A DNA stretch of 64,000 nucleotides, taken from assembly GCA_000002435.2 (NCBI GenBank), contig CM018791.1; one strand, 5' to 3'. The notes beneath the pieces are model-generated. The model did not search any database and had not been told where the DNA came from. It was given only the letters and a program-made list of their open reading frames with translations. Below, piece by piece: positions 26,228 to 58,949 of this stretch; positions within the stretch are counted from its first letter, which is position 1, and each line of letters opens with the position of its first letter. Origin of the DNA: Giardia intestinalis (taxonomy: Eukaryota). The translations under genes and the position numbers were made by a program.

Positions 26228-26296
26228 GATAAGCGAACTCATGATGGAAATTCAAATTACCTTAAAATATATTTTCTGAGCGCTTACATTTAGAAA

Positions 26297-27187
26297 ATGC
26301 CGAAGCTATCCCAGATCGTCGCTGACATGAAGCAGGCCATCGATGCCAAGGACGAGGCCCAGATCGCGTTCATAGCGTCGGAATACTCTGCAGATGCGCG
26401 TCAGAGGATTGCGCAGGGGTACAGGGACCAATACGGCAAGGAGCTCCCCGACGACATCAAGAAGGCGCTCAAGGGCGGCTCCGAGGAGAGCCTCCTGATG
26501 GATCTCTTCAGCGATCGTCACGAGGTCCGCGCCCAGCACATCCGCGACGCGCTTTCCGGCAAGAACGACCACATGGCCTTCTTCGACACAGTCATTCTGT
26601 GCACCCCCGAAGACTGGCACGAGACCGTCGCCGCCTACACGAGGATGTTCAAGAAGCCCCTCGTCGAGGACTTCATGAAGGATGTCGGCCGCAAGGAGAA
26701 TTGGTGTCTTTTCATGGAGAAGTGGATGGCTCACGAGCGCACTAGCCGTGAAGGCAGCCCTGACGAGGAAGCAGAGAAACTGAACAAGGCGTTCAGTGAG
26801 AGCGACCACGACTACATTTCCAGCTTCATGGCTGGGGTGCCTCCCGAAGAATACAAGTCCATCAACACCAGCTTCAAGAGCCTTACAGGAAAGGGCATCG
26901 ACCAGGCCTTCGCCACCATCTATACGGGGACTGACTACTACTCCCTGTACTGCGCCCACTTTGCTCTTCTTGGCATGCACAAGCTTGCCGCCTACCTGGT
27001 CAACTGCGCCTGCAACGATAAGGGCGACGAGAAGCGCATGAGGAGGATCACGGGCATGATGGTCGACAAGTGCTTGGCTGCAAAGTATGCCTACAAGACC
27101 TACGGGAGTATGAAAGCCGACGTCGAAAGGTGCTTTGATAAGCGCATGGCTCCGATCCTCTGTACCCTCTGGCGCCTAAGGGAGTGA
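26297..27187 (+). CDS. Alpha-giardin, alpha-1/alpha-2-giardin-like (array copy 4)
   Basis: At 296 aa it is closest to the recalled alpha-1/alpha-2 giardin sequence (KELPDDIKKALKGGSEESLLMDLFSDRHEVRAQHIRDALSGKNDHMAFFDTVILCTPEDWHETVAAYTRMFKKPLVEDFMKDVGRKE, CACNDKGDEKRMRRITGMMVDKCLAAKYAYK). The exact paralogue number cannot be assigned without a database. Confidence 0.9.
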   Translation: MPKLSQIVADMKQAIDAKDEAQIAFIASEYSADARQRIAQGYRDQYGKELPDDIKKALKGGSEESLLMDLFSDRHEVRAQHIRDALSGKNDHMAFFDTVILCTPEDWHETVAAYTRMFKKPLVEDFMKDVGRKENWCLFMEKWMAHERTSREGSPDEEAEKLNKAFSESDHDYISSFMAGVPPEEYKSINTSFKSLTGKGIDQAFATIYTGTDYYSLYCAHFALLGMHKLAAYLVNCACNDKGDEKRMRRITGMMVDKCLAAKYAYKTYGSMKADVERCFDKRMAPILCTLWRLRE

Positions 27188-27235: not shown

Positions 27236-27242
27236 GTTTACT
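27236..27242 (-). promoter_or_regulatory. AGTAAAC polyadenylation signal overlapping the stop codon of the minus-strand membrane-protein gene
   Basis: The minus strand reads cAGTAAACa, with the TAA stop (27238-27240) embedded in the motif. Confidence 0.55.
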
Positions 27243-30198
27243 GCCTTCTGTTTCTTTTTGCCCTGTCCTGGCGGTCCAAGATGCTATCCTGCGATGAGAG
27301 GTCTTTCGAGAACGGATGCGAGAAGTCTGGGATTGCTACATGCCGTCCACCTGACTGTGAGGGTGAGTAGGACTGGAGTAGCGGCAAGGAGTGGGAGCTC
27401 ATGTTGTCCATAGAGCTGTATGCCTGATCAATCTGCCCATTTCCTGCTTGTCCTCTGCGGGTTTTTTGTTTCAGATCTGAGCTGCCTAACCGAGAGGGGC
27501 CGTACTCTATGCTTAGTTCTCTATTAACCAACTGAACAGCCTTTGCTCGCTTGCTTGCCAGTGTATATTTATATCTATATTTCAAGAACAGAGAGAGGAC
27601 CGTGATGAAGAGGAGCAGGATGAGTGTCGCAACGGACCAGAACACGACAATAAGGGCTATAGACATCTTAGAATGATAACCAACAAAGCTTATGAACTCC
27701 TCTCCACTGAAAGAAGAGGAAAGATACCGAGTCTCGTAAAACTGAATGGTAGTCCTATCGATGGTGTGCCCCCAGATAGGGTCTACTATCGGCTGGTTGG
27801 TAAGATTGCTTGCAGCGGTATCGACAGCTGCCACAACCACTAAGTAGTAAGGCTCGTGCTTGTACGAAGGAAGGTCAACGGGAATGCGAAGCATGGACCA
27901 GGTGTTATTTGCTTGCTCGATAAACTCAGGAGTATATATTTCAGTATTGTCTGCAGCGGGTGCAACGACCCACTCGCTTACTCTATAAACAACATTAGAT
28001 GTATCCATATCTTGTACACTAGGTGTATGCTCTAGTGCCCCCTCTAGCCCACATCTGGAAATAGGGACCATCGGATAGGCCTGTCTAACCTCAGCCACGG
28101 ATGCACACGGGACCAAGTAAACGGCGTATGCAATATGAATGCCGGCCTCTCCGGTGTAAGCGGTGTACCTTTGTGCCGGTGCCTTGGCGCTATCCACCTC
28201 AATTATGTCAGACATAAGTCCCGTATGGATTCTAACTCGCGAATCGCCAATGATGATCCCCGCAAACCTTGTTAAATACCCAATTTTATAAGAGATTGCT
28301 GAGGGAGAGACATATTCTGTATCAAGGATCCTAACAAATGTAGCGTATGACGAGTACACAGGGGCATACACCATTGCCTCTGTGATAGGAACAAGCATGT
28401 CCAGGAAATTGATTCCCGAATGATCCATGTTGTCGGTCAGGCGGAGCTTAATTGGTTTTTTGTTGCTTTGATTTGAAAGGAACAGAGACGTATTACAAAC
28501 ATCAAAATAGATGTACCCACTGAGAGTGCTGACTCCCGTAGTGTGGCCAGAGTCTATGTAATATAGGTTCAAGGCCGATAGTGGATTGCTCTCTGTTCCA
28601 TAGAGCAATCCTGGTCTCAACGGAGCTGGCTTGGCCGCGTTTAGAATCAGGAGATCCAAATCAACAGAATGTTCAAGCTTTATATAGATTGAGCCGGTAT
28701 CTGGCTGTACTGAGAAGTCTTCTGGGCGAATCCGGAGGACAGCAGATTTATTTGTTATTGCCTCGAGATAGGTTGGTATGACAGAGCTCCCTGCATAGTT
28801 AACTCCACTAAGGTGGGGGAAGTTCATAACGTAAGCAAGAGAGTTATGAGTTTCGTTCGGATAGACAAGCGTAGTACTTAAGAAGAACTGCACATACGGG
28901 TGAAAGTTGGGAATAGAGACTTCGTAGAACGGGCGGAGCGTGATAACAACAACGAGCTCATCATCTATCCAGCCAGGATTCTCTATGATGAGAAGGGTTG
29001 CCTTGTTGCGATTATTTTTATTCACGAAGGATAGTGTCTCTGTGGCGCCGGTTATGAAGTTAACGTTAGTAAGGAATATCTTGCAGCTCCCGGCACTCTT
29101 TAAATTATATATCTCTGCTGACGTTGAGGCCTGGTACCCGGCAAACGAGGATAAGTCGGAGACATAGATAGAGGAAAGGTATCCTGGCGGAGTTACCTCC
29201 TGTACGGTCATCCACGCGTACCGAAGAGTGTTCTGCAGTATTAGGGAGCAGGCTACACTAAGGATATTATATCTAAGACAGATCCTGATGGAGGAATAAG
29301 GAATGCGCTCGGCGTCGAGACAGGTCGAGCCTATTAGTATTTGTGTTCCTGCTCGATAGTCAGATATGTCAACGGTATAGTGTATGGGTACATTATAATA
29401 GTCTATCTGCAAGTCAGGAGTAAAGCGCTGGTAGCGCTCAACATACGATATTGTCAAAGAGGAGAGTTCGTCGTGGAGATTGACAGTAAGGTAGTAGAAG
29501 CTTGACTCCATAAAGAGGCGCTTTGGGAGCGTTAAGTGGTCCTCTTGGTCGTTGGTAGCAGCAACGTACTGATACGTGTTACCAACAGAGCGAATGAGTA
29601 GGGTGGTAGGGTTGGCCAGCGACTCTCTTTTTGTAGCGAACGGTTGAGAATGAAGATCGATGAAGCAAGTAGGAGGAGCGTTCGCAGGTGTTTTATCGCC
29701 ATCAGAGAATGTGAGGAGGATGTCATGGAGTCCATCGTTTGCTAAGGCGAGAACACGCTCGCTTGCACGTGCATTGCCAGCAATAGTTATACTTTTTCCA
29801 TATATCAACTGCCTAAAGAGCCCGGCTGTGAAGTTTATGGTCGTAGGCATGGTAGCCTGGACTGTGAAATCGATGACAGATGGTGTAGAGCTTTCAGATA
29901 GCTGAATCAAGGAGGCTACTGTTTCCAACGGAATGGCAGTCATGTTGCTTCCCGTCGTTAACAAAAGCGGTATCCTCCCTACAGATACGCTCACAGTCGA
30001 CGTCTTTGCATAGGAAGTAAGGTTGACGCATAGGAGAGGCGAACTATTATGAACTGGCGTATATGTATACCTTATAGTGGCTGTGGAGTCTATGTCTAGA
30101 GAGATTGGTTCCATGTCCTTTATATTATAGACTCCTTCAGTGCTATGGGACGCTAGTATCATGGAAAGAAGAGCGAGTTGCAGTGTTCCCGGCCCCAT
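27238..30198 (-). CDS. Large type I membrane glycoprotein (signal peptide, approx 830-aa ectodomain, one TM, approx 110-aa cytoplasmic tail), family unknown
   Basis: The track start at 30207 is a TTG, and the ATG is at 30198. The N-terminal signal peptide is MGPGTLQLALLSMILASHS. It has many N-x-S/T sites, a single TM helix (IALIVVFWSVATLILLLFITVLSLFL) and a basic/Ser-rich tail. Confidence 0.75.
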   Translation of the reverse strand: MGPGTLQLALLSMILASHSTEGVYNIKDMEPISLDIDSTATIRYTYTPVHNSSPLLCVNLTSYAKTSTVSVSVGRIPLLLTTGSNMTAIPLETVASLIQLSESSTPSVIDFTVQATMPTTINFTAGLFRQLIYGKSITIAGNARASERVLALANDGLHDILLTFSDGDKTPANAPPTCFIDLHSQPFATKRESLANPTTLLIRSVGNTYQYVAATNDQEDHLTLPKRLFMESSFYYLTVNLHDELSSLTISYVERYQRFTPDLQIDYYNVPIHYTVDISDYRAGTQILIGSTCLDAERIPYSSIRICLRYNILSVACSLILQNTLRYAWMTVQEVTPPGYLSSIYVSDLSSFAGYQASTSAEIYNLKSAGSCKIFLTNVNFITGATETLSFVNKNNRNKATLLIIENPGWIDDELVVVITLRPFYEVSIPNFHPYVQFFLSTTLVYPNETHNSLAYVMNFPHLSGVNYAGSSVIPTYLEAITNKSAVLRIRPEDFSVQPDTGSIYIKLEHSVDLDLLILNAAKPAPLRPGLLYGTESNPLSALNLYYIDSGHTTGVSTLSGYIYFDVCNTSLFLSNQSNKKPIKLRLTDNMDHSGINFLDMLVPITEAMVYAPVYSSYATFVRILDTEYVSPSAISYKIGYLTRFAGIIIGDSRVRIHTGLMSDIIEVDSAKAPAQRYTAYTGEAGIHIAYAVYLVPCASVAEVRQAYPMVPISRCGLEGALEHTPSVQDMDTSNVVYRVSEWVVAPAADNTEIYTPEFIEQANNTWSMLRIPVDLPSYKHEPYYLVVVAAVDTAASNLTNQPIVDPIWGHTIDRTTIQFYETRYLSSSFSGEEFISFVGYHSKMSIALIVVFWSVATLILLLFITVLSLFLKYRYKYTLASKRAKAVQLVNRELSIEYGPSRLGSSDLKQKTRRGQAGNGQIDQAYSSMDNMSSHSLPLLQSYSPSQSGGRHVAIPDFSHPFSKDLSSQDSILDRQDRAKRNRRQ

Positions 30199-30270
30199 TA
30201 TGGGCAAAACTGTTTGTAGAGATGAGGATGGGTTTGCTTTTTATTTTTCTCTGAGTATTTCTACTCTACC

Positions 30271-42200: not shown

Positions 42201-45200
42201 TTTGCTGTCAGCTCCACGACCCTCAACGACTGCCATTGTCATCATGTCACCATGTCTACGGCTATTGCAGTCCTTCACAGGGTATCACCTTCACTCTCAG
42301 CATTCTCTGCTCAATCCCAAACTTCTCCTCCAATATCAGACCCGCGAAATAAGATACTATCATACATTCAAGCTGTCTTCAATCAGTACTTCGGAGAGCA
42401 CAGACGTCTCCTATTCGCAATTCGAGGATCTGATCACGAGCTTTTCCATAACACAGTTGCAGCGGTTAATGCAGATGAAGGCGATGCGCTTCTTTATTCA
42501 GCTCTCCCCGCTCGTGCTTGCGTTCTGTGCTGACGCCTGTCTTCTAACCGAGCCTCGAGATTACTACGCTGCATACTGTAATTTTGTCTATCTCTGCTCT
42601 AAGTATTGTATTATTACCGTTGTACCAGTGATTCAAAATGGGTTTGAAACAGCAAGCCTTTATGGTCGCTGGGAGACATCCGATCCTTGCTCAAATTCGA
42701 TATCAGATCTTGAACGGCTTCTTGGCTCTAGAATGAAGGGAAAGGAGCAGGCTACACCGCAGGCTACCGTATATGAAGCCCAGACATCCACTAAAGACTT
42801 TGAGCAGCTTGCTTCTTCGATAGTCGGAAGTGCCGTCACAACCTTCCCTGGAGCGATGTCTACATGTGACAGTGCCATAGACAAATGTATGGCAACATCG
42901 TTCATGCACCACACTGCGCAGGGCTCTGTCACTGAGCAGGGACACGCCGACATCAAAAGGCCCAAAGAGAACAACGTCTTCGAGCTCTTCAACATTTCTC
43001 AGAACAAGCTCCTATGTACAATGCCCATCCCACATGATTCAGTTAGGCAGTGTCTTATATTTTCTCAGCTAGAAATAAGATGCAACCCTGCCTTCTTTAC
43101 ATGCTTCACTTACTGCAATCAGAACTACTCTGAGTTAGTGGCAAAGCTGGCGCTTATCATCTTTGGACTTGCATTCTCCGCTTGCAAGCTTAAGACTATA
43201 GTTCCAGCGGGATCTAATTCAGAGGTATTCAGACGGATGTCTGCGTTCTTAGCCTCGTCCCTGAACATTGATGACCTGTATAGCGACTCACAAGATGTTT
43301 TGTTCGACTTTCACGAGCAGGCCTATAAACAGTGCAGAGAAGCATTGCTTATGGATGGGCCTCAAACTGCATATTCCGTCTTCCTCTCGCGCTACTTCCT
43401 TAGCACAAATGACGAGGAATCACTCACCGACACAAACGAGGCATATAGCACGGCTTATAATGAAACTCACGGAGCCATTTCAGTAGACAGGTATGTCTAT
43501 GTCCGTATTCTTAACAGCATGCTTCCAACGGCACAGACCATCGCTGCAAAAGGTGATGCGTTCCTTTACAGCTTGCTTCTTCCTTCGTTTTCAATGGAAC
43601 CCATGACCTATGAGGGGCTTCGATTGGTTGAGGAGACTATTTCTCGGTTTTCGGACGGAGATTTCGACACTCTTCTCACACTGCTCAATTTTAGCACAGT
43701 GTATCTACACTTCACCCCAGCGCTCTACCCCAAACGGTATATCCTGCACCAAGGCACAACTAAGCGTCCATCTTCAACACTATACAGTCCTGTTGGAGTG
43801 CAAGAAGATCGTCCTGGTCCGTTCAATGAAATTGTGGATGTGGGATATCTGACTGCATATCCTATAAGTAGCTATGATGCTGAGTTAAGGATGCTAGCCT
43901 TATCCATCGTTGCAGCTATGTTTTGCAAGATACCTGTTGTTCTTTTCAGTGTCTTCTCACCAATATTTAACCAATCCGCGTTGCGTGCCGCCACTGCGCT
44001 ATTTGAAGAGGACACGTCTGTTCTCATACAGGATGATAAGTATAGAGAAAATATGCAACTCCAAACATCAGCAGACGAGCATATAAAATTTGGCACCTTT
44101 TCATATAACACGTATCTAATTCATAGTGTTTGCACTGATGCTGACCTGATCCAGCTTCTCGCTCGCCTACGGTCCATGTGCCAGTTTGTTTCATGTAACT
44201 CCCAGACCTATCTGGTTTCGCCATGTAGACTCATAGTCCTCATCAGAGCACATGCTTCTTTTCTATATTACCCAACCCTCCTCACACTACTTGGTCAGAA
44301 AGTTCAAATGATCGATAACACTGGAGTCATGCAACTAGTTACTCTGCGCAATATCCTCTTCTTGGTTGATGTTGCTCACGGGCCTCCAAAGGATATGTTA
44401 AGGATTTACCAGGTCTCACACCTATACACAGTTCGCACAGATGTGTCACTTCCCAGAACGCGGCGTGATAGACTCTGCACACAAGGAAAGCATTATGGGC
44501 ACTATCTCCTGGCAAAGATCTTTGGGTTCCGTGCTGTCAGTCGGCAGCTGGAGAACTTTCTCCTTGACCGAAACTTTATGTACACAGAGCGTATTTCTGC
44601 TTCGATAAGCACAATTTGGCTTATGGAACAATATTATGGTGTGTCACGAAGCAACGACCACACACTTAACGATACTATTTCTGCCATAATCTACAATTCA
44701 ATAGAACAAGCCGCCACTCAATATCATGAACAATATCCAGAAATTTATAGTGCACTCTATGGTGCCACGACTAAACAGAGGTTGATGTTAAAATTAGCTG
44801 ATGCGCCAGCTGCTTCCAGTACGCTAGAAGCGCTTACTTGCAGACAGCTTCTCACGCACACACCTGGTCAGGGCGTGCTCCTCAAGCAATTGATTGATGC
44901 CTTCAACATAAACCTCTTGAAGATCCTGATTAATCGAAGTCTTTATTCCCATTTCATGAACGAGTACGCTGAGCGAGTTGGCGGTCGAAAGAACCGAAAA
45001 AGTCGGCAACACACGACCGCCAGACAAGCTTCTGCAATCTCTAGAAAATCGGGTGCATCCCGTAGTTGCTGTGGCTCTCGGGCGTCATCGTTGACTGTTC
45101 TGGAAGAAACTATTGAAGAAGGAACTTTCTTCACACCAACAATCGATCTAAGTTACTATCAATCTGTGAAATCTAAGCGGTTAGAGGATAAGTCTGATGG

Positions 45201-48200
45201 ACCAAGCAGTAAAAACAGTGACTCGTTTGATACCACCTCCACATCGGCAGCTGCAATTTCACCTAGAGATCAGAGGGCCTCTGACATCAAATCATCTCAG
45301 GTTCCATCTCTTAGTGTTAAGTGGCTCAAGCCACCTATGGTGCAGCAGAACCCTGAGGTAGATGAGCACACAGAGAGCGCAGTAAAGCTGCCTGCTGTTG
45401 TATCGTCCCTTCTTAATAAGGACGTTGGTACCAAATACTTAGCCAAACTGAGTAGCCTCACAGGGCAAGACTATTTCGGAGTCCACACAATGGAGCTAAG
45501 GAACATTTTGGCAGAGGCTCACCTTTCTCCCATGCACATACCGACCACCCTGTTTGTCCCTTCAGGGCTTCTTAGCTACGCTGATTTTATCCTTCTAGCT
45601 AAGTCTTTACCTGGTGTTCTTGATGCTCTCCCGATAGACAGTCGTGTTCACCCAGTAGACAAAGACTCCATTTTATTGGTCGATATAGCTGCTGCTTGCG
45701 GATTAACAGATAGGGCACTTCCACCAGTACTCCAAACAATGAGCGTTACCGATAGATTTCTCACGGCCCTAAGGGCAGCTACGTGTGCGGCGATGGGTAT
45801 GCCTCCATCTGCGGCATATCCTCGAATCTTTGAACGCTTCAAGAAGCAAGCATTTTCGGGCATAGGATCCAGTTTGGAATCTCCGCTTTACCTACCTAGT
45901 GGACGCTTATCAGATACGACTATCATGCCGCAGCACATTCTGTCTACACACCCTCTCCTGGCTATACCGCGATGGCACTTTCACATAAACATCCAGACAC
46001 AAACCCTTATTCAGTATAAAACATCCATGCGAACAAGGACCGAATTTCACCCCGAATACGTCCCATATAACAAATATCCCCATCAATTTAATACCGTTAT
46101 TTTGGCAATCCCTCTCAGCCTTGCAGTGAGTTGCAATCTCCTCACTATGGTTGCTAACTTCCTTTATCCGGGGTCGGGAGAAAACAGCTGGATAAACAGG
46201 GAAGATCAAAGTGATTTTCTATCCGACTTCAGCTCCATTTCTAAACTCGGATTGGTCACCACAAGAACATATTTATGTTTTGTGAGCTGTACCATGCAAG
46301 TGATTATATTCGACAACTACTGTTTGCAAGCTGCTGTGCGCAAGGACATTCTTGCCATACTCCCACCTCATTTGGACGTAGTGCACTTTCATGCAGGCTT
46401 AAGCATGCACAAAGATATTGCTTCCATAACACAAAGTCCGTTGATGCAGCACAGGCTGTCAATTCCCATCCTGGCTTTGCCACCAACAGCCACTATAACA
46501 ACCCAGCAGAAAACGGTGGAGATATCGGAACAGTTGGCTGAAATGCGTGTATACATTGTAGCATATTATCTATATGACACGCTGGTGACACAGTTTTCAA
46601 GTTTCTCCATTCCATTCAGCAATAGCGTCGAATCTTCGGGTGAACTGGACACCGAACACGCCAACATGGATGTCAATCAAAGGACTCTGACAGCCTACTC
46701 TGCTCAGCGTAGCACCAAAGACTCAACATTGCACTCGGACGAGTCTTCAAATTACGTGGACTCGGAGATCAGAAGCCTGCGTTTACCTTCACTCTTGTCC
46801 TGTCCATCCTCTGCGAGGTCCAAGCGCTCTGTACACAATGATTTTCAAGATAAGTATAAGCACGCTGCTACTGTGTCTGGAATCCACGCTAGATCGATCA
46901 AATCTATTTCTAAGTTTATCCCATATTCAAACATTAACGATTTTATCCTGATAGTACGCCATGTATACCGAAACTTGAGAAGCTACTATGCTTCTAAGTT
47001 GCATGACATATCTCTCTTTCAGCAGCAATCTGTCAATTTAACAAAGCTAGCAAAGCATGGAAGCATACAAACACAGGAGACATTAACAAGAACTGCGGAA
47101 AATATCGCGCAATTTGCAGCAACTATTGTCCCAGAAGAAGACTTAGATGAGGAGAAATACAAGGAGTCAACAAAGGCACTCCACGAAGCAGAGAAAAGGC
47201 TTGCAACAATTACGCAAGAACTTACTGATGCTGAAGCGAAGGTGAAGACTCAAAAAGAGAAGCTGAAGAATAGCATAGAGGGAAGTTGCGCTGCTGTCAT
47301 GTACTTTGGAGACTCTAAGCTTGCCAGCTATGTGAAGGCGTTGCTGGCAGACCCGGCCAAATACCGCAACTTTGCTGAATTGCTACATAGAATCCCGGTC
47401 ATTTCTTCTGCAGTGGAGACTGTCAGTATTACTCCATGTGCTGCCTTACCCATTGCTGACTTTTGGAACATTGTTGCAGCTGAGGTTTTCAGCTCATGTG
47501 AGCGCCTCTATTCCCTCTTGGTTGGCTTCGACCAAGAAAGGGATGTGCTGGACCCCATAACCACGATAGATAGCTCTGCATTTAACGGCATTGAGACGAT
47601 CGTCTTCACTTGGTATATGGAAACCATAGAATACAGACGCTTTAAGGACGAATGTGTTGCTCAGTTCAAGCTGGAAGAGCTACGGAATAACCACGTTAAC
47701 CAGCAACACATCGTCTCAACCCTTGCAGCAGAAAATAGATTGCTTCAACAGACCTGCCAAAATACAGATAAAGCACGCAACATCAGCAGTTCTCAGTTGG
47801 ATCTTCTAGAAGCTCAGCTGTGCGACCTTAAGGAGTTGTTCCAAATAGAGAAGGATACCATAGGTATGGTTGTTAAGCACATTCCATCTATGGTCACTGA
47901 GGAGCGGCGGATGCGACAGATGCACAATCTCAGTTATGTTCACGGTGTCATTGTCGCTGCAACCGTGTATTTCGGAATTGGCTTAACCAGCATCTGCATT
48001 GATATTTTATCTAAAGCGAGTGGAACTTGCTCTTCAGAAGAGTGCTGTGCATTTTGTAGCATTCTCGATCTACCCCTCTGTTCGTGCTGCAATTGCTGTC
48101 TATGTTTTTGCGATTGCAAGTATGTGATGTCAGACACGGGTGCTACATTTCTGGTCAAAGCAGATGTTTTTAGTGAGCGTTCCATCTGTCGCCACATGAA

Positions 48201-51198
48201 ACGGAAAGACCAAGTTGTATCTCAGATGTTCCTTCTGCTGCGTAGCGAGTTCTCTCGCCAGCGTCTTTTGAAGTACAAGCTGCAGACAGACCAATTTCGC
48301 GTTCTGGAATTTGCGAGTCTCCTTATTCTCCACAAGGTCTTCAAGCGCCCGATCTTTGCTAGTAAGTATGCAATCCGTGATCTACCGCTTCTTGCAGATT
48401 GCATGGGTGCCTTAGATCCGTTTCTTTCCGTCCATACAGTCAGGGTGGCCCAGAATCTTTCTGCGTTTTGCTCTGCATTCCGAAAGGCTCTCCTAGACGT
48501 GCATACAAGAGTTATAGTCTTTGAGATAGCAGACACATGCCCTGCAATCCTGGATATTCTTGTCGCCTTCACGGTAGTTTATCCCTCTAAGGTTGAGACT
48601 GTGAATGAGGACACAACTTATAGCATACAAACTTTCTCCGTAAAGACTCCACGGCCCTTATCTCAGTATCGCTTCATAGTGACATTCGATATTGACGGTG
48701 CCAATCCTTTGGTGTATTGCATTGAGCCTGTAATTGTCAATCCATCTATTTTGCAAATGGATGTGTTAGAATTTCCATGGTATGCCTTGTTACAGAATGC
48801 TAGTATCTCTGCTGGCACCCTTTCTATGCACCGACCTTTTAGCTCCAAGGACGCTGAGGCCTCTATTCTTCTGCATAAGGATACAATACTTCAGCAGATT
48901 ATTTGTCACTACATTAATGGATACCACGACCGAGTTTTGGAGTATAGAACTGCTATTGTGGAGCTTGAAAGTGTAGTGGAGAGACAGCTACAGGTGTGCA
49001 TTGAGCAGTTGCATGAAGTGGAGAGTACCAGCTATACAGCAAAGGCATCAGTAGTCTATACGTGCTACAGGACATACCTTGACCAGGTGGACACACTATC
49101 TGCACTGTCCGATAAAAACAAGGCTATTCTCACAGAGCGGGCAAAGATGGAGAACGACGAACAGAGCAATCTCAATGTTGCCACCAGAATTATTATGGCC
49201 ATGAGCAACTATCTGCTCCGCTTGGCCCTGAGCTACCCTGCTGTACTTTATCCTCTGATATGTATACAATCCAAACCGTTCGCACATGACACAGATTATG
49301 TAGATTGCTCCCTTTTATTTTTACTCGAGATTGCTGATAACTTGTATAGAGCACTTCCACTATCAATCTTTCTCCCTGCCCTCATAATGGTTATAATAGT
49401 TTCTGAAATTACTCGGGGAACATTAACTCTGGATGACTATCAGCTCTTTAGCGCTGTTATGCTATCTGTAGGCAAGATACCCACTATCAACAGGGAAAAT
49501 ATTGATGTCGCCTCTCCATTCGGTCCCTACTATGCCGTTCAGTTTGATTCTTCTGGAAAGATTGTGCTTACATCAAAGGAGGCCTACTGCCTGGCTATGC
49601 TCCGAAAAGCTCATCCAAAAGTAGATTTTTCCATATTCACCACACCACTGGTGGGATCAGGAGAGGAGCCATTGAGTAGTGCACACACTACAAGGAACAA
49701 TCTCATGCTATACATCTTACGACAATACTCCGAAAAGAGCCCCAAACACATACACAATTTTCTTAGGACACTGGGAGAGTCCTTCTATTGCAAAATCATG
49801 GGTCTAGTATGTTATGGAACCGCCGGAGTGCAGACTACCACCAGTTCTAGACTAGCTTGTGCATTCAAGATTAAGCTTCCTGGGCCATCTATTGGACTAA
49901 TAACGAGAGTTGCTCAATCTGCCTCACCGTCCAGGGTCGTGCTTCTGCTCACTGCCAACACCGTACAGACTGCATATGCGCTATGGGCAACAGGCTTGTT
50001 TACTATGTCAGCTTCTGTGCTAGATGCAAGTACCCCCCAGGGGGCAGGATTGATTCTGTACCCATGTGTCCCGATACATGCTTTATCACGGCTTACAAAG
50101 GGATCTGTTGGAGTAGCTGATATTAGTTTGGGAATAACGACAATCTCGGACATATGTTGTCTGCTATCGCAATTGTCCGCGTTAAGCACAGCGCATCAAG
50201 CAGATAACCTATTAGTATGGTCTGATCGTCCGTTGGGGCTTCGTGCGCTGGTGGCCGCCATCACCGTGCCTCTGAGAATGCGCAAGAGGAGTTCATGGCT
50301 CTTGTCTCCATTGACACAGGTAGTGTGTACGGTTCATACCGACCAAGATCGCTTGATGGAGAGGCTTATAGTTGCTTCTATAGCAATATGCATGCGCTAC
50401 CCCCTTCTATTTAATAAGCTGTCGTTTTTCTTCAACCGTTCTGAAGCTATTCTCTCTTCAAACCAGTGGTATTTTCAATTAGTTCGAGCACGCTGCAATC
50501 ACGTGGTTACAAACATGAAGCAAATACAAAAACTCTGTATTAATGAAACAAACACACTAGAATGCATTGTGAGGTTTGCGCATGGGTTCTCATCAATTAT
50601 AGAAAAGGCAAGCCTGCATTCTTTCGTCTATGCTTTTGACAAGCTGACCCTAGGGCTACATGATGATGCTTATAGGCAACCCCTTGCCTCTCTCTTTACT
50701 TTCATGACCTTGCTACTGTTGCAGTTAAGCCCGAATAGTGATGAAGATGGTTTTGTTTCTGCTTCTGAAATGGAGCAATCAGTGACGTGTACTGGGCAAA
50801 GCCTTTCTGCCCCGATTCTGGATATGGCAATATTAAGCTCTAACGATGCTCTGATTAGTGATTCTGTTGGTGGAACAACCTCCGATGCCTACTCTTCTCG
50901 AGACGACTTTGCCACTTACTCTGATAGAATAATTCGATGTATGCTAACATTCACTACCCTTCCAGATGCGCGACTACTTACATCCTCAGTCCATCAGTTG
51001 CGCCAATCCCCTGTTCAAGCATCAACCCTGGCACATTCTCTCCTGGAGGAACTAGTTGCTTCATCACAACAAGATCAGCAGACTTCTCCAGAGAAACGTC
51101 TAGTTACACCTGTGCAGGCTCAAAACTGCGGTGTATACCTCTTACAAGACGATTGCGTGGTAGCTCCTCTGAATGAGAAAAACGCTGCCGATGCATAG
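30271..51198 (+). CDS. Giant hypothetical protein (6,975 aa) with no recognisable catalytic motif
   Basis: A single uninterrupted 20,928-nt ORF with the ATG at 30271 behind an AT-rich leader. It has no Walker A/P-loop, so it is not dynein or midasin-like. It is L/S/T/I-rich and non-repetitive, with a few hydrophobic segments and one poly-Cys cluster. Confidence 0.8.
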   Translation: MPPLARRDLTIPAALRAISRQTGHRISCDEKRAKSSISQFRSHSPQPSYLASEARLSGYKSIFKAQNPPKVLSSIDAFLRPNEEKKEPISPPSEAVIGSPRMFTMSPKFARSKALGIDPRSLAPSDNIYYKAAEFPSQNAEFYSNQPPPITSSLPDTAYSKAVHPPTTEDGIRRVGSVMSVLRPTDAAPRLEKAQAADFLLEQLIENSVQILHGLGLSRIYEANQTQNWYECEVIAKMGDKFEVYFPAINHKKIVTLKNLILKQITITQASDVTLPMLPNYSSQNTNSMAAITNAIPTVPEAQSLAHAPFSPPSEQRDKGTVADSAHMASFSTLADKPAVVLPPRKKSRPAPHTASSDSHYQSVPITLDDIAEATDSQQINLFDESFDNSSFTHVITQPYVHVTVSPCMPCISLEPPSSMSASECTVRSDIQPAPELEEPGCANLSVMADMLSDLINEITPAYNTSLFGKRPSSCRLNITDAQSDPDAVPSNMYRGHANHTGAPFDCVELYEATEQPNNANTTFECTDFLEQVLNSASPEVNNDPKESSLTANIVLTDAKGPPDIFLSNDTTTSKTDQFEITLKPLAAPKEQDTLCTYTPIQQLPLTPSRNKPTRTIDLVSLLGITTHTELINVFLECIDHFTLKDRFAMAVRYLSSEILHRKVQNHQYLSIFTTSIIAALLELRLPHTSRASYTIDCVTDYREAQIRLDKVRFKCNADRLQALQNLAHEKELLYKKLCLTFQTKNLTTSSAVELCSIGIKSAQPILNHIRTSKLTLHLESLDPPAFNFQQTMADAVMDYLANAQTTDLQIQLIQEASINTSSPIHWCHTYLASFLWNTSKYYLTAQNTSIVNYMAQTAADRRLMMERGIAALSNISYLSADRAMFLLFRQLTATIEDYIGYLTLTPDLLLVTGIPFYPKVSPDILGSIVFTEDSEQREKRLVTENGVSLDPDQKVVMFDGYSLKKRLGYRFFPEVQMAANNTAHGHSVPLTNIINDTPARSLFIRIEKGINFMQKLDFYLTNSFILLFEILIPYIQETLLSNYDQKMQRSLEKMIKMEKINSKRQKLPDETIEKLAIQAQSSLKHGYVELEKQIEVYIYRLFNKVFEDTVFPLWLGLIHSLLHSIDVPEKCDRYALHSGTSAMSEEVASIQQHHEHCSADATTLDALTKNMKGSTGSGIDESTLRATDLCTERTASFLQMPESVELDSDSAPSSVLVSGMNVDADNLLLSHVSAMRGCNLSSSLQSGPLVLTKLFTPEIANFFLQLQEKFANIKQKYQQVSSILFTTPYTRPIFESLDLDLNYFQADMAQNSLDTAKESIEHILNVLSTLVIHVIFETNSYGLISNIAFDPSSDSIYSGLLCFIFDLVDFYSATPTLVNVLLNRRVNAQVDIVDLIADSAGMGVKRPHVRGGREHAVSEAIQGPTYLYDNEPALDNDQLVSRSVIGMNTTLLRPLVSPDTKDMSANSYLDVAKDVVDSFVIENWNIFKRESVYSEYIKMFFDLDITSCTQSYQLHSSQPPCASKNPKKAPVHAQNASAIDPFETADLKIPHAITKRKRQLSRVTSRLRNDPPASGLKLMSVAKLALTNMSIYLKSLQNDFSTFYHANLLALRDLFNEAYLFPREVYTGSKTMLSLYSLFRSKLKALRKNHTKQINGRLAKELGLSTDVKDDVESRKIPIEDMVASAEVVVSETGAVSHPSIDSSHFYLDETSCRDYFLPIHHPIASYLQGDMMDKFLFTTEPAEHSSRKYEEELRKSVAANRTGACHARNLIFDELLLFTGYLRQPAVVTALCQFYIPGDKPPELLSKHIIDITNTSSIITRILSNIYGLSESYYAVTALPPVCFYGTIKIDYSNYLATVARQAHELYVLYLNRLDDYCRLIHECGVTCIEYITKNLMNTHFDSAASLGAVYFIFKNFATFYPKWRDYYAWFNDVSVCLGNMIIDGRRAALLNEKLLYYRTQGSLMLMKTFKSMENRSQSISQCYQKLISQLTLIDNWVLSTQDALFQRIREYIRLNTQAIALCDEAPAKFAQQYETFTRNFVFPRAVRNLHDKGDLLDITAVLKSIDSATCLPFLSSLSDCLRRREPSILQLFHRDTDASGIPIFRSVDFPAAFTECEDIAHHLILLCEALIRTRKDALALNMYPYNDKTLFPTDKAILDAITEDRNLSAIDAVIFYDKDVDTAKTRTARRDYFLKQLLDPGESLKLSSSTVDAILHPSTQQGPVLTRLRNLLPLLFLINKLVALYFDFLSNFEQWMNCTIGRLSLSDVKNFVVQVVITATIILETLRDSVPISELARTLLQFITKKRSQLQLFFILKSSLYKINFIQSPNAARNVCLSSFEAMEVVTNRLLLLSDLEPLRTNELGQLLGIIQANIDEFLCIDPRDLHVVDFYVRDLLKYNRSKYSDETKVKIFLEIVSNHECSIMRSYRIGLHRIRAERFQYIQSSLIQRALANKENRVNPDERLEFPCHFLVSRTGGFVLETTVLQPQVLEVVSKYASTSDQGTTQTAEKLPAASRKALYSFHSEELSGKLQDLTKVSMSDTLDASLEMYEEGRDTDSAKTVEPDEKLTMTAALAQKEGIVIRGPIRNAAINASQCFSTGIFYEACTFGYLAYQYFGLFVLDQDEKDNKQPNVDLGKSSRKCGNNIAAETRRYNSSLDRIKLLGSDEPVIYSRVSADYSPLNSVYLKQNYPSFLDKSHFLSLCYHADFTLVGDKRGKLLFLEKKLTIKVPRKLFELDSQLQYDLLGLQGPLSHTTEQRPAAPTCMALKRLTIIPDINLHIFTILCAVLQNYVTFDSLASHLFDLDAIHQLVSLQWRVYLLMSRCIFIISYVRAHANKLFYYVDMQTICLQARGLPVLVPAVHTRAVTHKFLTLLYKTQTLLSTAQSNGATMSNIASRKVLRDTIFAQIKDLIEFEGEIVAANMPFLQHSGTLRDSANFPDSYMLSRQFLVSSFIESIIYDNFYSPVICSADKLTECKGAVVCSLPARVITACSTVLSNFGFHRMQFVIYKIVSLTNSRSFYIFAGVLFGMDLHEASGRQQEYLRFCMPILLDRLPHCFTILTYSMLQTTISASLSWYVQYYSDILANDALNCDIALCILRSIPLATGVLAILRLFHVLVSDSTKPGVNSLEKLKTLRSALATLTYVLSILLRYQIITVPSTYMSLVHRSVCISIDKYLDPSTSVCCHTHFTIDFEALEEQFPYNHQRHDMPITKAVTFEQHAPTEDSYTIPCFDMLHGSLSKDFKREAQKDYMAALLHYNKHHIKHATILGPCTVLPFSYLYIKDTSPLEVQISSILQETFTSVRYRLFRDILISLSNTLSDIIEDCVETPPVLTLPPSEKQIQPPDTASPTVNPYVSHGFVTSIFVSGGDESLFRLLDDFNIFAFQLLGDYLHTYNRDFITSMRFFQTRASFLGTQQAFTPMRVYSGVTPVCAYKGHVFLDASFPDGMFAEFSTLPIYSEILDKLLFYKLLFIVSPINDGPACNSPLKSFFSAYVPLITGHPVVFDQPCLVDEFSIESMTDKEATYFRSLLCMLVLGAIIVITSEVATRHNWATYMRLHEERVRQDLPGSLVFILPGLVKTYHEHNIEEPMYVLAEKALSILALYGLGQESNHLIRYRDGFVGTDKVQQYVHDTDLSIKIERLAAKFSQLSVGSQSLSNAMLRSVFSNTPNVLSAAPLPYLLRNYLLLIAGTLDDSEARMVLTAVFVSTFGTSLLDKDESGQDAMAFLTELTERYAASSYYFLDSDMKEVPASANPPMTYTVPFALMFSYAFSSLQYIRASHTELRFFSEPACLTESEKRLNQEFHLSTSNMRLCGLLSEFYLQFFGRDILATFPFSTTGFYFLFNLVYIILLILTQSVSIGPIGLHVIDLPLCNTLYGMVTAAIRYLVSDIIIMELRFQNQCRFASKRLNIADPVEGEESSISHPSFVEVTDVSQITDVATGRVTYRPYTIYFMALKVINPTQDTTMLYEILLSAPRPSTTAIVIMSPCLRLLQSFTGYHLHSQHSLLNPKLLLQYQTREIRYYHTFKLSSISTSESTDVSYSQFEDLITSFSITQLQRLMQMKAMRFFIQLSPLVLAFCADACLLTEPRDYYAAYCNFVYLCSKYCIITVVPVIQNGFETASLYGRWETSDPCSNSISDLERLLGSRMKGKEQATPQATVYEAQTSTKDFEQLASSIVGSAVTTFPGAMSTCDSAIDKCMATSFMHHTAQGSVTEQGHADIKRPKENNVFELFNISQNKLLCTMPIPHDSVRQCLIFSQLEIRCNPAFFTCFTYCNQNYSELVAKLALIIFGLAFSACKLKTIVPAGSNSEVFRRMSAFLASSLNIDDLYSDSQDVLFDFHEQAYKQCREALLMDGPQTAYSVFLSRYFLSTNDEESLTDTNEAYSTAYNETHGAISVDRYVYVRILNSMLPTAQTIAAKGDAFLYSLLLPSFSMEPMTYEGLRLVEETISRFSDGDFDTLLTLLNFSTVYLHFTPALYPKRYILHQGTTKRPSSTLYSPVGVQEDRPGPFNEIVDVGYLTAYPISSYDAELRMLALSIVAAMFCKIPVVLFSVFSPIFNQSALRAATALFEEDTSVLIQDDKYRENMQLQTSADEHIKFGTFSYNTYLIHSVCTDADLIQLLARLRSMCQFVSCNSQTYLVSPCRLIVLIRAHASFLYYPTLLTLLGQKVQMIDNTGVMQLVTLRNILFLVDVAHGPPKDMLRIYQVSHLYTVRTDVSLPRTRRDRLCTQGKHYGHYLLAKIFGFRAVSRQLENFLLDRNFMYTERISASISTIWLMEQYYGVSRSNDHTLNDTISAIIYNSIEQAATQYHEQYPEIYSALYGATTKQRLMLKLADAPAASSTLEALTCRQLLTHTPGQGVLLKQLIDAFNINLLKILINRSLYSHFMNEYAERVGGRKNRKSRQHTTARQASAISRKSGASRSCCGSRASSLTVLEETIEEGTFFTPTIDLSYYQSVKSKRLEDKSDGPSSKNSDSFDTTSTSAAAISPRDQRASDIKSSQVPSLSVKWLKPPMVQQNPEVDEHTESAVKLPAVVSSLLNKDVGTKYLAKLSSLTGQDYFGVHTMELRNILAEAHLSPMHIPTTLFVPSGLLSYADFILLAKSLPGVLDALPIDSRVHPVDKDSILLVDIAAACGLTDRALPPVLQTMSVTDRFLTALRAATCAAMGMPPSAAYPRIFERFKKQAFSGIGSSLESPLYLPSGRLSDTTIMPQHILSTHPLLAIPRWHFHINIQTQTLIQYKTSMRTRTEFHPEYVPYNKYPHQFNTVILAIPLSLAVSCNLLTMVANFLYPGSGENSWINREDQSDFLSDFSSISKLGLVTTRTYLCFVSCTMQVIIFDNYCLQAAVRKDILAILPPHLDVVHFHAGLSMHKDIASITQSPLMQHRLSIPILALPPTATITTQQKTVEISEQLAEMRVYIVAYYLYDTLVTQFSSFSIPFSNSVESSGELDTEHANMDVNQRTLTAYSAQRSTKDSTLHSDESSNYVDSEIRSLRLPSLLSCPSSARSKRSVHNDFQDKYKHAATVSGIHARSIKSISKFIPYSNINDFILIVRHVYRNLRSYYASKLHDISLFQQQSVNLTKLAKHGSIQTQETLTRTAENIAQFAATIVPEEDLDEEKYKESTKALHEAEKRLATITQELTDAEAKVKTQKEKLKNSIEGSCAAVMYFGDSKLASYVKALLADPAKYRNFAELLHRIPVISSAVETVSITPCAALPIADFWNIVAAEVFSSCERLYSLLVGFDQERDVLDPITTIDSSAFNGIETIVFTWYMETIEYRRFKDECVAQFKLEELRNNHVNQQHIVSTLAAENRLLQQTCQNTDKARNISSSQLDLLEAQLCDLKELFQIEKDTIGMVVKHIPSMVTEERRMRQMHNLSYVHGVIVAATVYFGIGLTSICIDILSKASGTCSSEECCAFCSILDLPLCSCCNCCLCFCDCKYVMSDTGATFLVKADVFSERSICRHMKRKDQVVSQMFLLLRSEFSRQRLLKYKLQTDQFRVLEFASLLILHKVFKRPIFASKYAIRDLPLLADCMGALDPFLSVHTVRVAQNLSAFCSAFRKALLDVHTRVIVFEIADTCPAILDILVAFTVVYPSKVETVNEDTTYSIQTFSVKTPRPLSQYRFIVTFDIDGANPLVYCIEPVIVNPSILQMDVLEFPWYALLQNASISAGTLSMHRPFSSKDAEASILLHKDTILQQIICHYINGYHDRVLEYRTAIVELESVVERQLQVCIEQLHEVESTSYTAKASVVYTCYRTYLDQVDTLSALSDKNKAILTERAKMENDEQSNLNVATRIIMAMSNYLLRLALSYPAVLYPLICIQSKPFAHDTDYVDCSLLFLLEIADNLYRALPLSIFLPALIMVIIVSEITRGTLTLDDYQLFSAVMLSVGKIPTINRENIDVASPFGPYYAVQFDSSGKIVLTSKEAYCLAMLRKAHPKVDFSIFTTPLVGSGEEPLSSAHTTRNNLMLYILRQYSEKSPKHIHNFLRTLGESFYCKIMGLVCYGTAGVQTTTSSRLACAFKIKLPGPSIGLITRVAQSASPSRVVLLLTANTVQTAYALWATGLFTMSASVLDASTPQGAGLILYPCVPIHALSRLTKGSVGVADISLGITTISDICCLLSQLSALSTAHQADNLLVWSDRPLGLRALVAAITVPLRMRKRSSWLLSPLTQVVCTVHTDQDRLMERLIVASIAICMRYPLLFNKLSFFFNRSEAILSSNQWYFQLVRARCNHVVTNMKQIQKLCINETNTLECIVRFAHGFSSIIEKASLHSFVYAFDKLTLGLHDDAYRQPLASLFTFMTLLLLQLSPNSDEDGFVSASEMEQSVTCTGQSLSAPILDMAILSSNDALISDSVGGTTSDAYSSRDDFATYSDRIIRCMLTFTTLPDARLLTSSVHQLRQSPVQASTLAHSLLEELVASSQQDQQTSPEKRLVTPVQAQNCGVYLLQDDCVVAPLNEKNAADA

Positions 51199-51754
51199 TA
51201 TGCACGCGCTTCTCAGAGTCTTCGATAGTATAAGCGAAGGCGGGCCTTCTTTATACAGAGAGTTCATCGACGCCACATCGCGTCAATTCTCAGAGAGCAG
51301 CCTTCCTGGAAGCGGGTCCCCGATCGTCGGAGCACCTTCATCTGGCTCCCACGAGCCCTACCGAAAACCAGTAACCCCAACAACACCATCTATCGGTATA
51401 AACACGGAATCGTCCAGTCCGCCCAAATGGAACCCTCTTCTTAGATGTGTCGCACCTCTGAGATTGCCGCGTCCACCCAAGCCTTGGCACCGAGGAACGT
51501 GGAGCGGCATGTGTACCGGTGACACAGGAATCTTGGCTATAGACCTTTTCAGCAGTCCGCAGGAGGTGGATCCTAGCTCTCTTGCCTTTGTTGTCGCCTC
51601 AGAAATGGCGGTGTATGATACCGTCTGCCTACTGATCCACGTCAGAAACAAGGGGATCTGCCACTTCGTTCCGCGGGGATGCACCGTCGGCGTGTGCGCA
51701 TCGATGGAGGAGGCAGAGACATTTCTGCGCTGCCTCTTTGGGGCTGTTGAGTGA
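51173..51754 (+). CDS. Small hypothetical protein (184-193 aa) overlapping the 3' end of the giant gene
   Basis: It has in-frame ATGs at 51173, 51191 and 51200, and the last is just past the giant-ORF stop. Its C-terminus is Cys-containing. No similarity was recognised, so coding status is uncertain. Confidence 0.35.
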   Translation: MRKTLPMHSMHALLRVFDSISEGGPSLYREFIDATSRQFSESSLPGSGSPIVGAPSSGSHEPYRKPVTPTTPSIGINTESSSPPKWNPLLRCVAPLRLPRPPKPWHRGTWSGMCTGDTGILAIDLFSSPQEVDPSSLAFVVASEMAVYDTVCLLIHVRNKGICHFVPRGCTVGVCASMEEAETFLRCLFGAVE

Positions 51755-56528: not shown

Positions 56529-58949
56529 TCAGTTTTTCTTTCGGAAGACGAAAAACCAAACCAGCACACCCGCCACACCGCCGACGACGAGGACCACGCT
56601 GATGGCGATGCCAGAGATGGCACTAGACGAGAGGGCGGACTTTTTGGAGGTGCTGTCGTACTCCAGACATACGGGTGTGGCTGCACCCTCTGGAACCACG
56701 CAGAGGCTGCACTTGGAGATCGCCTTGTGACACGCCTTGCACGTGCTCTCGGAGAAGTAGTACCCGGCCAGGCAGTCAAAGCATACCTCCCCATGGGGGC
56801 AGGTGGCGCAGCCCTTGGAGCACGCCTTGCACGCCCCCTTCTCCAGGTAGAACCCGCTGTTGCAGGCGTTGCAGACCCCACTGCTACACATTGCGCAGTT
56901 CGTCGGGCATGTAAGGAGCGTTCCGTTGTACGTTATCCCGTACCCGGTCACGGTGCTGTCACACCAGCCGTTACTCTCCTTCGTGCAGACAGTCTTCCCG
57001 GGGAGGAGCGTGGAGGTGTAGCACCCCCCGTTGAGGCTGAAGGAGTTTGAGCTGCAAGCAGCACATCTACCGGCAGCGACATTCGCGCACGCGATGCCAG
57101 CCGCCCGCAAGCTGGAGAAGGTGCACGCCCCGTTGTTGGGGTACTCCGTGCTCTTGGCGCAGCGCGAGCAGTAGCTGGTCCCGCCCACCGTGAGCCCGCA
57201 CTCTGCACAGCTGCTGTCCTGCACGCACTGCGGGACGCACGATCCCTTGGCACCGTCGCTGTACTGCAGCCGCTTCCTGGCAGGGCAGGAGGTGCAGTCA
57301 CCGGACGCCGGTCCGCTGCACGTGGCACACTCAGAGCTGCACGGCTTGCATCCTCCCGAGCCCTCGACGTAGAACCCGTCCCTGCAGGTCTTGCACTTGG
57401 ATTCCGACTCGCAGACTGCGCAGTTGCCGAGCGTGCACGCCACGCACCTCGAGACGCCCCCCACGGTGGCCTTGTAGTACCCGGCGGAGCCCAGGCAGTC
57501 CTTCACGCACAGACCGTGGGGGTCGAGGCTGTTGCCACCGGCACACTTTGTGCATACGTTTCTGTCCTCGCACGTGTCGCAGTTGGGGTCCTTGCACTTG
57601 GTCGCCACGCACTGACTGCCGGAGAGTGTGTAGCCATACTTGCACTTCTTACAGCTCGACTCGTCACACTCAGCGCAGTTCTCCACCGCGCACCCGACGC
57701 ACTTCCCGTCCTTCAGATATGACCCGTCATCGCACGCGCAGCTGTGGACCGAGGATGAGGACCCCTTTATGCCCTTCTGCCCCTTGGGACAGCTGGCCAG
57801 GCAGCTCCTCTTATCCAGGCTCAGGTAGAGGTCGCGGCACTCCAGACACTGAAGACTACTGTCCTTCATCTCACACCTTTGGCATCCCTCTATTCCCCCG
57901 TTGGCTGAGTCCCCGCAGCGCCAGCATCCGTTGTTCTTGGTGAACACTTCATTGATTGAACTGTTGCATGCAGTACACACATTGTTTTGCACTGTCTGAC
58001 AAATCTGAGACCCTACTTGACCTGGAGCATAACTAAATAAGTAGCATCCACCATAAAACAAGAAGTATTGCCTGTTGCTATCATTCTTACAAGATGTGCA
58101 TTTTCCCGTTTCAGAATCTTTCGTACAAACATTATCAAATCCGCTAATTGACCCACAGAGGCCATTCTGAGGCACTTCTGATGAATTGGCACATTGTGTG
58201 CACAACGATTGTCCCTGTATATCTATAGTATTTCTTGGTAAACAGATACTGTTGCCAATTACACTATCTGTGGTATAACACCCAAACTGACTCCAGACGT
58301 AACCCCTAGGACAAAAGTAACAATAGCCGAGCTCGAGTCCCTTAACAGACCTACATCGAAAATCAAAAGGGCACATAAATCGTTCTGAGCATTCGCTACA
58401 GCTGGGTATAGTGTTCCCTGGCAACCTATGTTGGTTACAGTACTGACACCTATATACACCACTACTCCCGCCAAAGCCTACTATATCTCCGCAGTAGATA
58501 CAGCGTTCAGGAGAGGTCGCATTAGGGTTGGTAAAAGTTATTGGAGTATAGTACGTACTACCCTTTCCGCACTCTTGACAAATCCCATTTTCTGCACGAT
58601 CGCAAATACTTGCTTTCCATCTGCCAGACAATTCATAGCAGCCACCGTAAAATAAGAAGTAACCATTTTTACATCCTGTGCACCATCCACCTTTCGGCGA
58701 TTTAACACAACCGGCTTTATTAACTTTTTCGTCTGTAGTAGCAACACATGTGCCGTTGATGGGAACATAATCCTGGCTACACTCTGTGCAAAAAAAAGCA
58801 CCTAAGTCCACTAGGCATCTATCCTGAAGACACTGTGAGATCTTGCCTTCACAAGAATACCCAAAGCCATTGTAGTATACAAACGTTTCCTCAGAGAAAG
58901 ACCCTGCCAGAAAACAAGTCAGAATCACGATCAGCGAAGCCAAAGTCAT
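56529..58949 (-). CDS. High-cysteine membrane protein (HCMP; VSP-like Cys-rich ectodomain, not a VSP)
   Basis: Signal peptide MTLASLIVILTCFLAGSFS. It has dozens of CxxC/CxC motifs and GYY/GYF (GGCY-like) repeats. The C-terminal TM plus RKKN tail differs from the VSP CRGKA tail. ATG at 58949. Confidence 0.85.
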   Translation of the reverse strand: MTLASLIVILTCFLAGSFSEETFVYYNGFGYSCEGKISQCLQDRCLVDLGAFFCTECSQDYVPINGTCVATTDEKVNKAGCVKSPKGGWCTGCKNGYFLFYGGCYELSGRWKASICDRAENGICQECGKGSTYYTPITFTNPNATSPERCIYCGDIVGFGGSSGVYRCQYCNQHRLPGNTIPSCSECSERFMCPFDFRCRSVKGLELGYCYFCPRGYVWSQFGCYTTDSVIGNSICLPRNTIDIQGQSLCTQCANSSEVPQNGLCGSISGFDNVCTKDSETGKCTSCKNDSNRQYFLFYGGCYLFSYAPGQVGSQICQTVQNNVCTACNSSINEVFTKNNGCWRCGDSANGGIEGCQRCEMKDSSLQCLECRDLYLSLDKRSCLASCPKGQKGIKGSSSSVHSCACDDGSYLKDGKCVGCAVENCAECDESSCKKCKYGYTLSGSQCVATKCKDPNCDTCEDRNVCTKCAGGNSLDPHGLCVKDCLGSAGYYKATVGGVSRCVACTLGNCAVCESESKCKTCRDGFYVEGSGGCKPCSSECATCSGPASGDCTSCPARKRLQYSDGAKGSCVPQCVQDSSCAECGLTVGGTSYCSRCAKSTEYPNNGACTFSSLRAAGIACANVAAGRCAACSSNSFSLNGGCYTSTLLPGKTVCTKESNGWCDSTVTGYGITYNGTLLTCPTNCAMCSSGVCNACNSGFYLEKGACKACSKGCATCPHGEVCFDCLAGYYFSESTCKACHKAISKCSLCVVPEGAATPVCLEYDSTSKKSALSSSAISGIAISVVLVVGGVAGVLVWFFVFRKKN

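Follow-up and report, generated by a model that had tools for sequence, protein, structure and literature searches.

A conserved hydrophobic helix and cysteine string in a giant hypothetical protein of Giardia intestinalis, a possible acylated membrane anchor

Introduction

The cysteine string of CSP, which contains 12–15 cysteines, is palmitoylated, is needed for membrane targeting, and resembles a transmembrane (TM) domain (PMC4447612). In the SARS-CoV-2 spike, 10 cytosolic cysteines are all S-acylated by ZDHHC20 (bioRxiv 10.1101/2021.03.14.435299). Here we describe a module of similar appearance in a 64,000-nucleotide stretch of the Giardia intestinalis genome (contig CM018791.1 of GenBank assembly GCA_000002435.2), referred to below as the window. 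The module lies within a giant open reading frame (ORF) and consists of a hydrophobic helix followed by a dense run of cysteines, a combination that had been picked out earlier from the letters of the DNA (the original prediction). We find that the cysteine cluster is not a product of chance and that helix and cysteines are retained together in a highly diverged orthologue. The motif is real, conserved and probably functional, and we tentatively read it as a membrane-inserting helix joined to a multiply S-acylated cysteine string.

When compared with CSP-alpha/DNAJC5, the module was found to share the number and spread of cysteines (12–15 over about 25–30 residues), the interspersed L/F-type residues and the TM-like hydrophobicity. 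Unlike CSP, the giant protein has no J domain in a whole-protein Pfam scan and no sequence homology to CSP; its string is internal (at about residue 5,900 of 6,975) and comes after a distinct helix of TM grade, and its cysteines alternate as CxCxCxC, whereas those of CSP are contiguous. The arrangement of a hydrophobic helix, with a cluster of about 10 cysteines near it on its C-terminal side, is shared with the coronavirus spike. The spike cluster, however, begins at the membrane boundary, close to the C-terminus of a type I protein that has a signal peptide, whereas the giant protein continues for more than 1,000 residues after the cluster, has no evident signal peptide, and carries the core of its cluster 23–40 residues away from the helix. 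By analogy, the module may work like the acylated anchors of CSP and the spike, while being a member of neither family.

Results

When the product of the giant ORF was looked up in a protein collection, it was found to match exactly GL50803_16544 (XP_001706952.1; UniProt A8BHZ8) of G. intestinalis isolate WB, which is annotated as a hypothetical protein. Translation bore out a 21-residue hydrophobic stretch and a dense cysteine patch near residue 5,900, as had been claimed; the features of the module are listed in Table 1. Two details of the claim were in error. The patch contains 12 cysteines (13 with C5909, which is inside the helix) and not 14 in its 34 residues, and the four residues SKAS separate it from the helix, which it had been said to follow directly. 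C5909 (nucleotides 47995–47997) is located near the C-terminal end of the helix. The 12 cysteines of the cluster span 30 residues, from C5920 to C5949, a density that falls within that of the CSP string. The first of them is 7 residues past the helix, and the core begins 23 residues past it. The protein continues for 1,024 residues from the cluster to its C-terminus.

The composition of GL50803_16544 is rich in Leu, Ile and Val, and cysteine accounts for 2.14% of its residues (149/6,975). We compared the maximum number of cysteines per 34-residue window with that in shuffled sequences. The observed maximum of 12 was far beyond the 2,000 shuffles, which reached 8 at most (mean 4.5), and the second-densest window of the protein contained 5; the single-window binomial P for 12 cysteines is 3e-12. 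A tandem DNA repeat was looked for beneath the cluster and none was found, which rules out a tandem-repeat origin. Within the species, nine independent full-length assemblage A sequences were compared. Variation was present at 213 sites (3.05%), six of which are cysteines outside the cluster, while all 12 cysteines of the cluster were invariant; the only variants in the module were G5918R and F5946L. Since the density is far beyond that of the shuffles, there is no underlying DNA repeat, and no cluster cysteine varies across assemblage A, the cysteine cluster is a real, non-random feature.

An exhaustive HMMER search with residues 5400–6599 against 1.84 billion representatives (a 50%-identity library) yielded one relative, a protein of 7,055 aa designated P0033 (E = 2.7e-13). 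It originates from one Logan contig of 82,930 bp, has no copy in NCBI or UniProt, and is the sole member of its 90% cluster. BLASTP of GL50803_16544 against P0033 gave eight ordered high-scoring segment pairs with 20–28% identity. Because these are collinear across both proteins from end to end, P0033 is a full-length orthologue, presumably from a distant Giardia-like diplomonad, and it suggests a Giardia-like species that has no annotated genome in the databases. This search detected no relative in other lineages, and at the level of sequence the protein is thus lineage-restricted. A word-indexed homologue search (with residues 5400–6975, with residues 5750–6150, and with the two-species alignment) returned only a 335-aa fragment that was 100% identical, and no relatives came out of two scans of metagenomes, which used patterns taken from the alignment and from a single sequence, respectively. 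Orthologues from assemblages B and E, and named ones from G. muris and Spironucleus, were not recovered. It may be noted that the homologue searches missed the 6,975-aa sequence cluster of GL50803_16544 itself, which is present in the collection; the non-recovery of orthologues from assemblages B and E is for this reason not evidence of motif loss.

In P0033 the module reads KTPH-AVVIAAFLLFGSSTFSLVCKLI-RHFSRMNSNERI-CMFC-AATINNEITNGRIFQKKPSVYYV-CPCCSSCYCLCNCC-RAY. The order of elements is common to both species: a basic flank, a conserved His, the helix with AA...FG, CxFC, and the core CxCCxxCxCxCxC. When the core pattern was searched for as a regular expression, it was found once in each of the two proteins. 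In a global alignment, 9 of the 12 cluster cysteines were identical in P0033, compared with 32 of the 137 elsewhere (Fisher P = 5e-4), the background identity being about 22%. The densest 34-residue cysteine window of P0033 is also the module, with 9 cysteines, the runner-up having 5. The original prediction was to be given up if the cluster proved absent or not conserved in orthologues; both the helix and the cysteine string are kept in P0033.

Could the run of cysteines nevertheless have arisen by an accident of composition or as an artefact of assembly, situated beside one of many hydrophobic helices and without specific function? Such an explanation can point to the hydrophobic stretch itself, which, taken alone, is ordinary in the G. 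intestinalis protein (seventh of the eight peaks described below). It has to contend with a count of 12 cysteines against a shuffle ceiling of 8, with a cluster unchanged in nine independent assemblies while 213 other sites vary, with the retention of the cluster in an orthologue of about 22% identity, and with the absence of a DNA repeat. We find it hardly credible; chance origin is effectively excluded by the conservation data.

The two modules differ by a polar insertion of 16 residues (including 2 Lys, 1 Arg and 1 Glu) between CxFC and the core in P0033. Because of this insertion the distance between helix and core is not fixed, and helix and core therefore do not form one rigid fold. The original prediction had also allowed for a membrane-inserted hairpin. 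A helical hairpin with the cysteine-rich stretch as its second arm was rejected, as that arm is not conserved and is broken by the insertion. In both species the C-terminal end of the helix carries a cysteine, and the residues between the core cysteines are hydrophobic or aromatic (L and F versus Y and L).

The hydrophobicity of the helix was assessed by simple scales (Kyte–Doolittle over 19 residues, KD19; the summed Hessa scale; Eisenberg <H>; and the hydrophobic moment), calibrated on proteins of the same window. For the 19-mer at residues 5892–5910, KD19 was 2.03, the Hessa sum +0.67, Eisenberg <H> 0.735 and the hydrophobic moment 0.02. TM controls (an MFS sugar transporter, a VSP and the product of ORF 27238–30207) had KD19 values of 1.9–3.0 and Hessa sums of -4.8 to +2.4. 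In the soluble controls (kinases, WD40, TFIIS, the four alpha-giardins and others) KD19 did not exceed 2.10, and the Hessa sum was above 1 throughout. A moment of 0.02 means that the helix, in contrast to amphipathic helices of the membrane surface, has no polar side. On both scales the homologous helix, AVVIAAFLLFGSSTFSLVC, exceeds every other 19-mer among the 7,055 aa of P0033 in hydrophobicity (KD 2.17, Hessa -0.16), and it is the only one in that protein with a Hessa sum of 1 or below.

The G. intestinalis protein has eight KD19 peaks of at least 2.0. Its other Hessa-grade peaks (3535 and 3843) are less hydrophobic in P0033, and the peak at 6362–6380, with a KD of 2.33 in G. intestinalis, has only 1.35 at the aligned position of P0033 and 1.79 nearby. 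A second hydrophobic segment, at residues 4541–4559, has similar values in both species (KD 2.32 versus 2.06; Hessa 1.36 versus 1.21) and is a possible partner TM helix. Since the strong peaks at 3535, 3843 and 6362 lose hydrophobicity in P0033 while the helix tops that protein, helix 5893–5913, and possibly also 4541–4559, may be singled out as candidates for membrane segments in a protein that looks soluble elsewhere. The proposal of a TM segment is supported in so far as the helix scores as TM-grade on simple scales, among the TM controls of the same window and beyond the soluble ones; a cytosolic position of the cluster does not follow from the flank charges.

The net charges of the N- and C-terminal flanks are +2 and -1 in G. 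intestinalis, and +2 and about +3 in P0033. In the former, the positive-inside rule favours an N-in, C-out orientation. It was considered whether the helix is a true span, single or paired (for example, with 6362–6380), that would place the cysteine string in the lumen or outside the cell, with the cysteines in disulfides or bound to metal. Peak 6362–6380 could bring the chain back to the cytosol, and cysteine-rich exoplasmic proteins are abundant in Giardia, the VSP encoded in the window being one of them. On the other hand, the C flank of P0033 is more positive than the N flank, and the hydrophobicity of 6362–6380 is, as the values above indicate, weakly conserved. The C-terminal 1,000 or so residues are Cys-poor, Leu/Ser-rich and helical like the remainder of the protein, CxxC occurs only six times in all 6,975 aa, and the N-terminus shows nothing that resembles a signal peptide. 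GL50803_16544 shares with the VSP and HCMP proteins of the same organism a richness in cysteine and a putative TM helix. VSPs, however, carry hundreds of residues of exoplasmic CXXC repeats and a C-terminal TM segment with a CRGKA tail, and the giant protein has neither a VSP nor an HCMP Pfam match. An exoplasmic string is in our judgement very unlikely.

A second possibility is that the cysteines form a metal-thiolate cluster (Zn, Cu or Fe), either metallothionein-like or an unclassified zinc knuckle, which stabilises or regulates the local fold, the helix being a buried core helix that makes no membrane contact there. The cluster is about 35% Cys, as in metallothioneins, and spacings of the metallothionein style (CC, CxC and CxxC) fill CSCCNCCLCFCDC, with CAFC upstream of it. 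The exact positions of the seven core cysteines are kept at a background identity of about 22%, a conserved His precedes the helix, and similarly hydrophobic, presumably buried helices are numerous elsewhere in the protein. Metallothioneins are small, essentially aromatic-free proteins that bind metal in thiolate clusters. The Giardia cluster, in contrast, is embedded in a protein of 6,975 aa, contains F and Y, and is situated beside a TM-grade helix; aromatic or aliphatic residues between the cysteines are unusual for metallothioneins. When the isolated module of either species was scanned against Pfam, no zinc-finger, RING or metallothionein match was found at E values up to 10. A RING-type or other Pfam zinc finger was rejected on this ground, and also because the spacing does not fit a RING on inspection and one would-be ligand is Ser in P0033. 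Moreover, CxFC and the core are separated by the 16-residue indel, and the adjoining helix, which tops the hydrophobicity of the orthologue and has a near-zero moment, would be difficult to account for if the membrane played no part. Metal binding is rather unlikely on this balance, and is the alternative to which we give the most weight.

In the eukaryotic CYSTM family (PF12734), too, Cys is enriched within or beside a hydrophobic membrane segment. CYSTM, however, anchors small proteins by their C-terminal tail and has its cysteines inside the TM helix, whereas the Giardia module is internal, has its cysteines outside the helix, and gave no match to PF12734 or any other Pfam family. Membership in the metallothionein, CYSTM and VSP/HCMP families was thus rejected, as was that in the AAA+ giants, the tests being Pfam, the CxxC count, the P-loop and the position of the module.

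The protein as a whole was also examined. Over its whole length no Pfam family scored above threshold, and sequence and profile searches of the PDB gave no match below E of about 1. The Walker A motif [GA]xxxxGK[ST] was absent from both GL50803_16544 and P0033 in a motif scan; identity as an AAA+ giant (dynein, midasin or RNF213) was dropped, there being no P-loop in either orthologue and no Pfam match. A coiled coil upstream of the helix has weak support from heptad periodicity (z no higher than 3). About 20 residues before the helix there is a conserved Pro. A second AlphaFold2 model, of residues 1750–2475, was built from the two-sequence alignment with the fold of the giant protein in view, and was too poor to interpret, its predicted local distance difference test (pLDDT) score being 34.6. 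No paper on the protein was found in the literature by its gene, protein or UniProt identifiers. The description of the protein as otherwise soluble is broadly right, since the N-terminus does not resemble a signal peptide and segment 4541–4559 is the only further one that is TM-grade in the orthologue as well.

A Pfam scan of the ORFs showed that the window also encodes TFIIS and kinases. A complete VSP gene of 806 aa is present at 56529–58949 (-) (Pfam VSP, E = 1.5e-84). Four tandem paralogous ORFs at 23229–27187 (+), encoding proteins of 296, 317, 302 and 296 aa, form an alpha-giardin array, and all four have Annexin and Annexin E1 fourth repeat matches. The array is directly upstream of the neighbour of the giant gene, ORF 27238–30207 (-), which encodes 989 aa without a Pfam domain and is found beside the giant gene in divergent orientation. 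This neighbour contains the strongest TM-like segment of the window, IALIVVFWSVATLILLLFI (KD 2.97, Hessa -4.84). When read from its TTG start it has no exact copy in the protein collection, and the annotated start probably differs. A 193-aa ORF at 51173–51754 (+), without a Pfam match, begins 26 nt before the stop of the giant ORF in a different frame. ORF 828–5690 (+), of 1,620 aa, has as its sole Pfam match 22 residues aligned to the 25-residue Streptococcal surface antigen repeat (E = 4e-07), a match that is probably compositional.

Table 1. Coordinates of the giant ORF and of the features discussed in its product
Feature	Residues	Nucleotides	Strand	Remarks
Giant ORF, 6,975 codons		30271–51198	+	From the ORF list; 21-kb gene
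Second hydrophobic segment, MLALSIVAAMFCKIPVVLF	4541–4559	43891–43947	+	Possible partner TM helix; values for both species in text
Basic N-terminal flank, ERRMRQMHNLSYVHG	5878–5892	47902–47946	+	Net charge +2; His 5891 kept in orthologue
Hydrophobic helix, VIVAATVYFGIGLTSICIDIL, 21 residues	5893–5913	47947–48009	+	Conserved AA...FG core
Polar linker, SKAS	5914–5917	48010–48021	+	Between helix and cysteine patch
Cysteine string, GTCSSEECCAFCSILDLPLCSCCNCCLCFCDCKY	5918–5951	48022–48123	+	12 Cys in 34 residues
CxFC element, CAFC	5926–5929	48046–48057	+	CMFC in orthologue
Core, CSCCNCCLCFCDC (CxCCxxCxCxCxC)	5937–5949	48079–48117	+	CPCCSSCYCLCNC in orthologue; regular expression and alignment

Discussion

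Having set out the alternatives, we return to the reading of the module as an acylated membrane anchor, which we favour with somewhat less than even confidence. A cysteine at the end of a helix is a typical acylation position, and hydrophobic or aromatic residues between cysteines resemble those of acylated strings and not those of metallothioneins. The cysteine at the helix end, the hydrophobic residues between the cysteines, and the variable spacing of helix and core all fit this reading. Membrane insertion, a cytosolic orientation and acylation of the module are all inferred.

The mechanism that we envisage is as follows. GL50803_16544 would be a cytosolic, mostly helical giant scaffold, except at this point, where the uniformly hydrophobic helix 5893–5913 would partition into a membrane. 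The helix may lie monotopically, or may span the membrane paired with another segment such as 4541–4559; if the latter is a real span, the cysteine string would be returned to the cytosolic side. With the helix inserted, the adjacent string would come to lie on the cytosolic membrane face, where the DHHC acyltransferases of Giardia could add several fatty acyl chains to it, and these chains would lock this point of the protein of about 7,000 residues onto the membrane. Nine DHHC acyltransferases are present in Giardia, and protein palmitoylation occurs in this organism (PMC4109852).

Several observations weigh against an acylated anchor. The G. intestinalis helix ranks only seventh among the eight KD19 peaks, its Hessa sum is borderline, and buried helices of like hydrophobicity are common in leucine-rich helical proteins. 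In the case of a single span, the flank charges of the G. intestinalis protein would leave the string exoplasmic, away from the DHHC enzymes. The core of P0033 is about 40 residues from the helix end and is hence not tightly juxtamembrane. The position-exact conservation of the seven core cysteines is stricter than acylation alone needs, and is of the kind seen in a metal or structural site. The original prediction was also to be abandoned if the helix were confidently predicted to be buried in a globular fold. No confident burial was obtained, and the AlphaFold2 model of residues 5684–6388, built from the two-sequence alignment, is uninformative on helix burial either way at a pLDDT of 39.6. 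Finally, no palmitoyl-proteome of Giardia was found in the literature.

A more specific proposal is that the module is an internal anchor not described before and peculiar to the Giardia lineage. It would consist of a short monotopic helix and the strictly patterned CxFC...CxCCxxCxCxCxC, the latter either bearing acyl chains, up to about 10 in number, or forming a metal-thiolate cluster apposed to the membrane, and it would pin the giant protein, the largest orphan protein of the parasite at about 7,000 aa, to the membrane of a specific organelle. We regard this as quite unlikely. If true, it would make GL50803_16544 a giant membrane tether or scaffold without counterpart outside the diplomonads.

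The helix and cysteine string together are the sole discrete, testable functional handle that was found in GL50803_16544. If metal is bound, Giardia, which depends on cysteine as its main thiol, would possess a thiolate cluster of unclassified type. Whether the module is acylated or binds metal, the consequence is confined to the cell biology of Giardia and holds no general surprise. If the acylated anchor is correct, the module would provide a heavily acylated substrate for the nine poorly characterised DHHC enzymes of Giardia, and would show where and how the giant protein meets the membrane.

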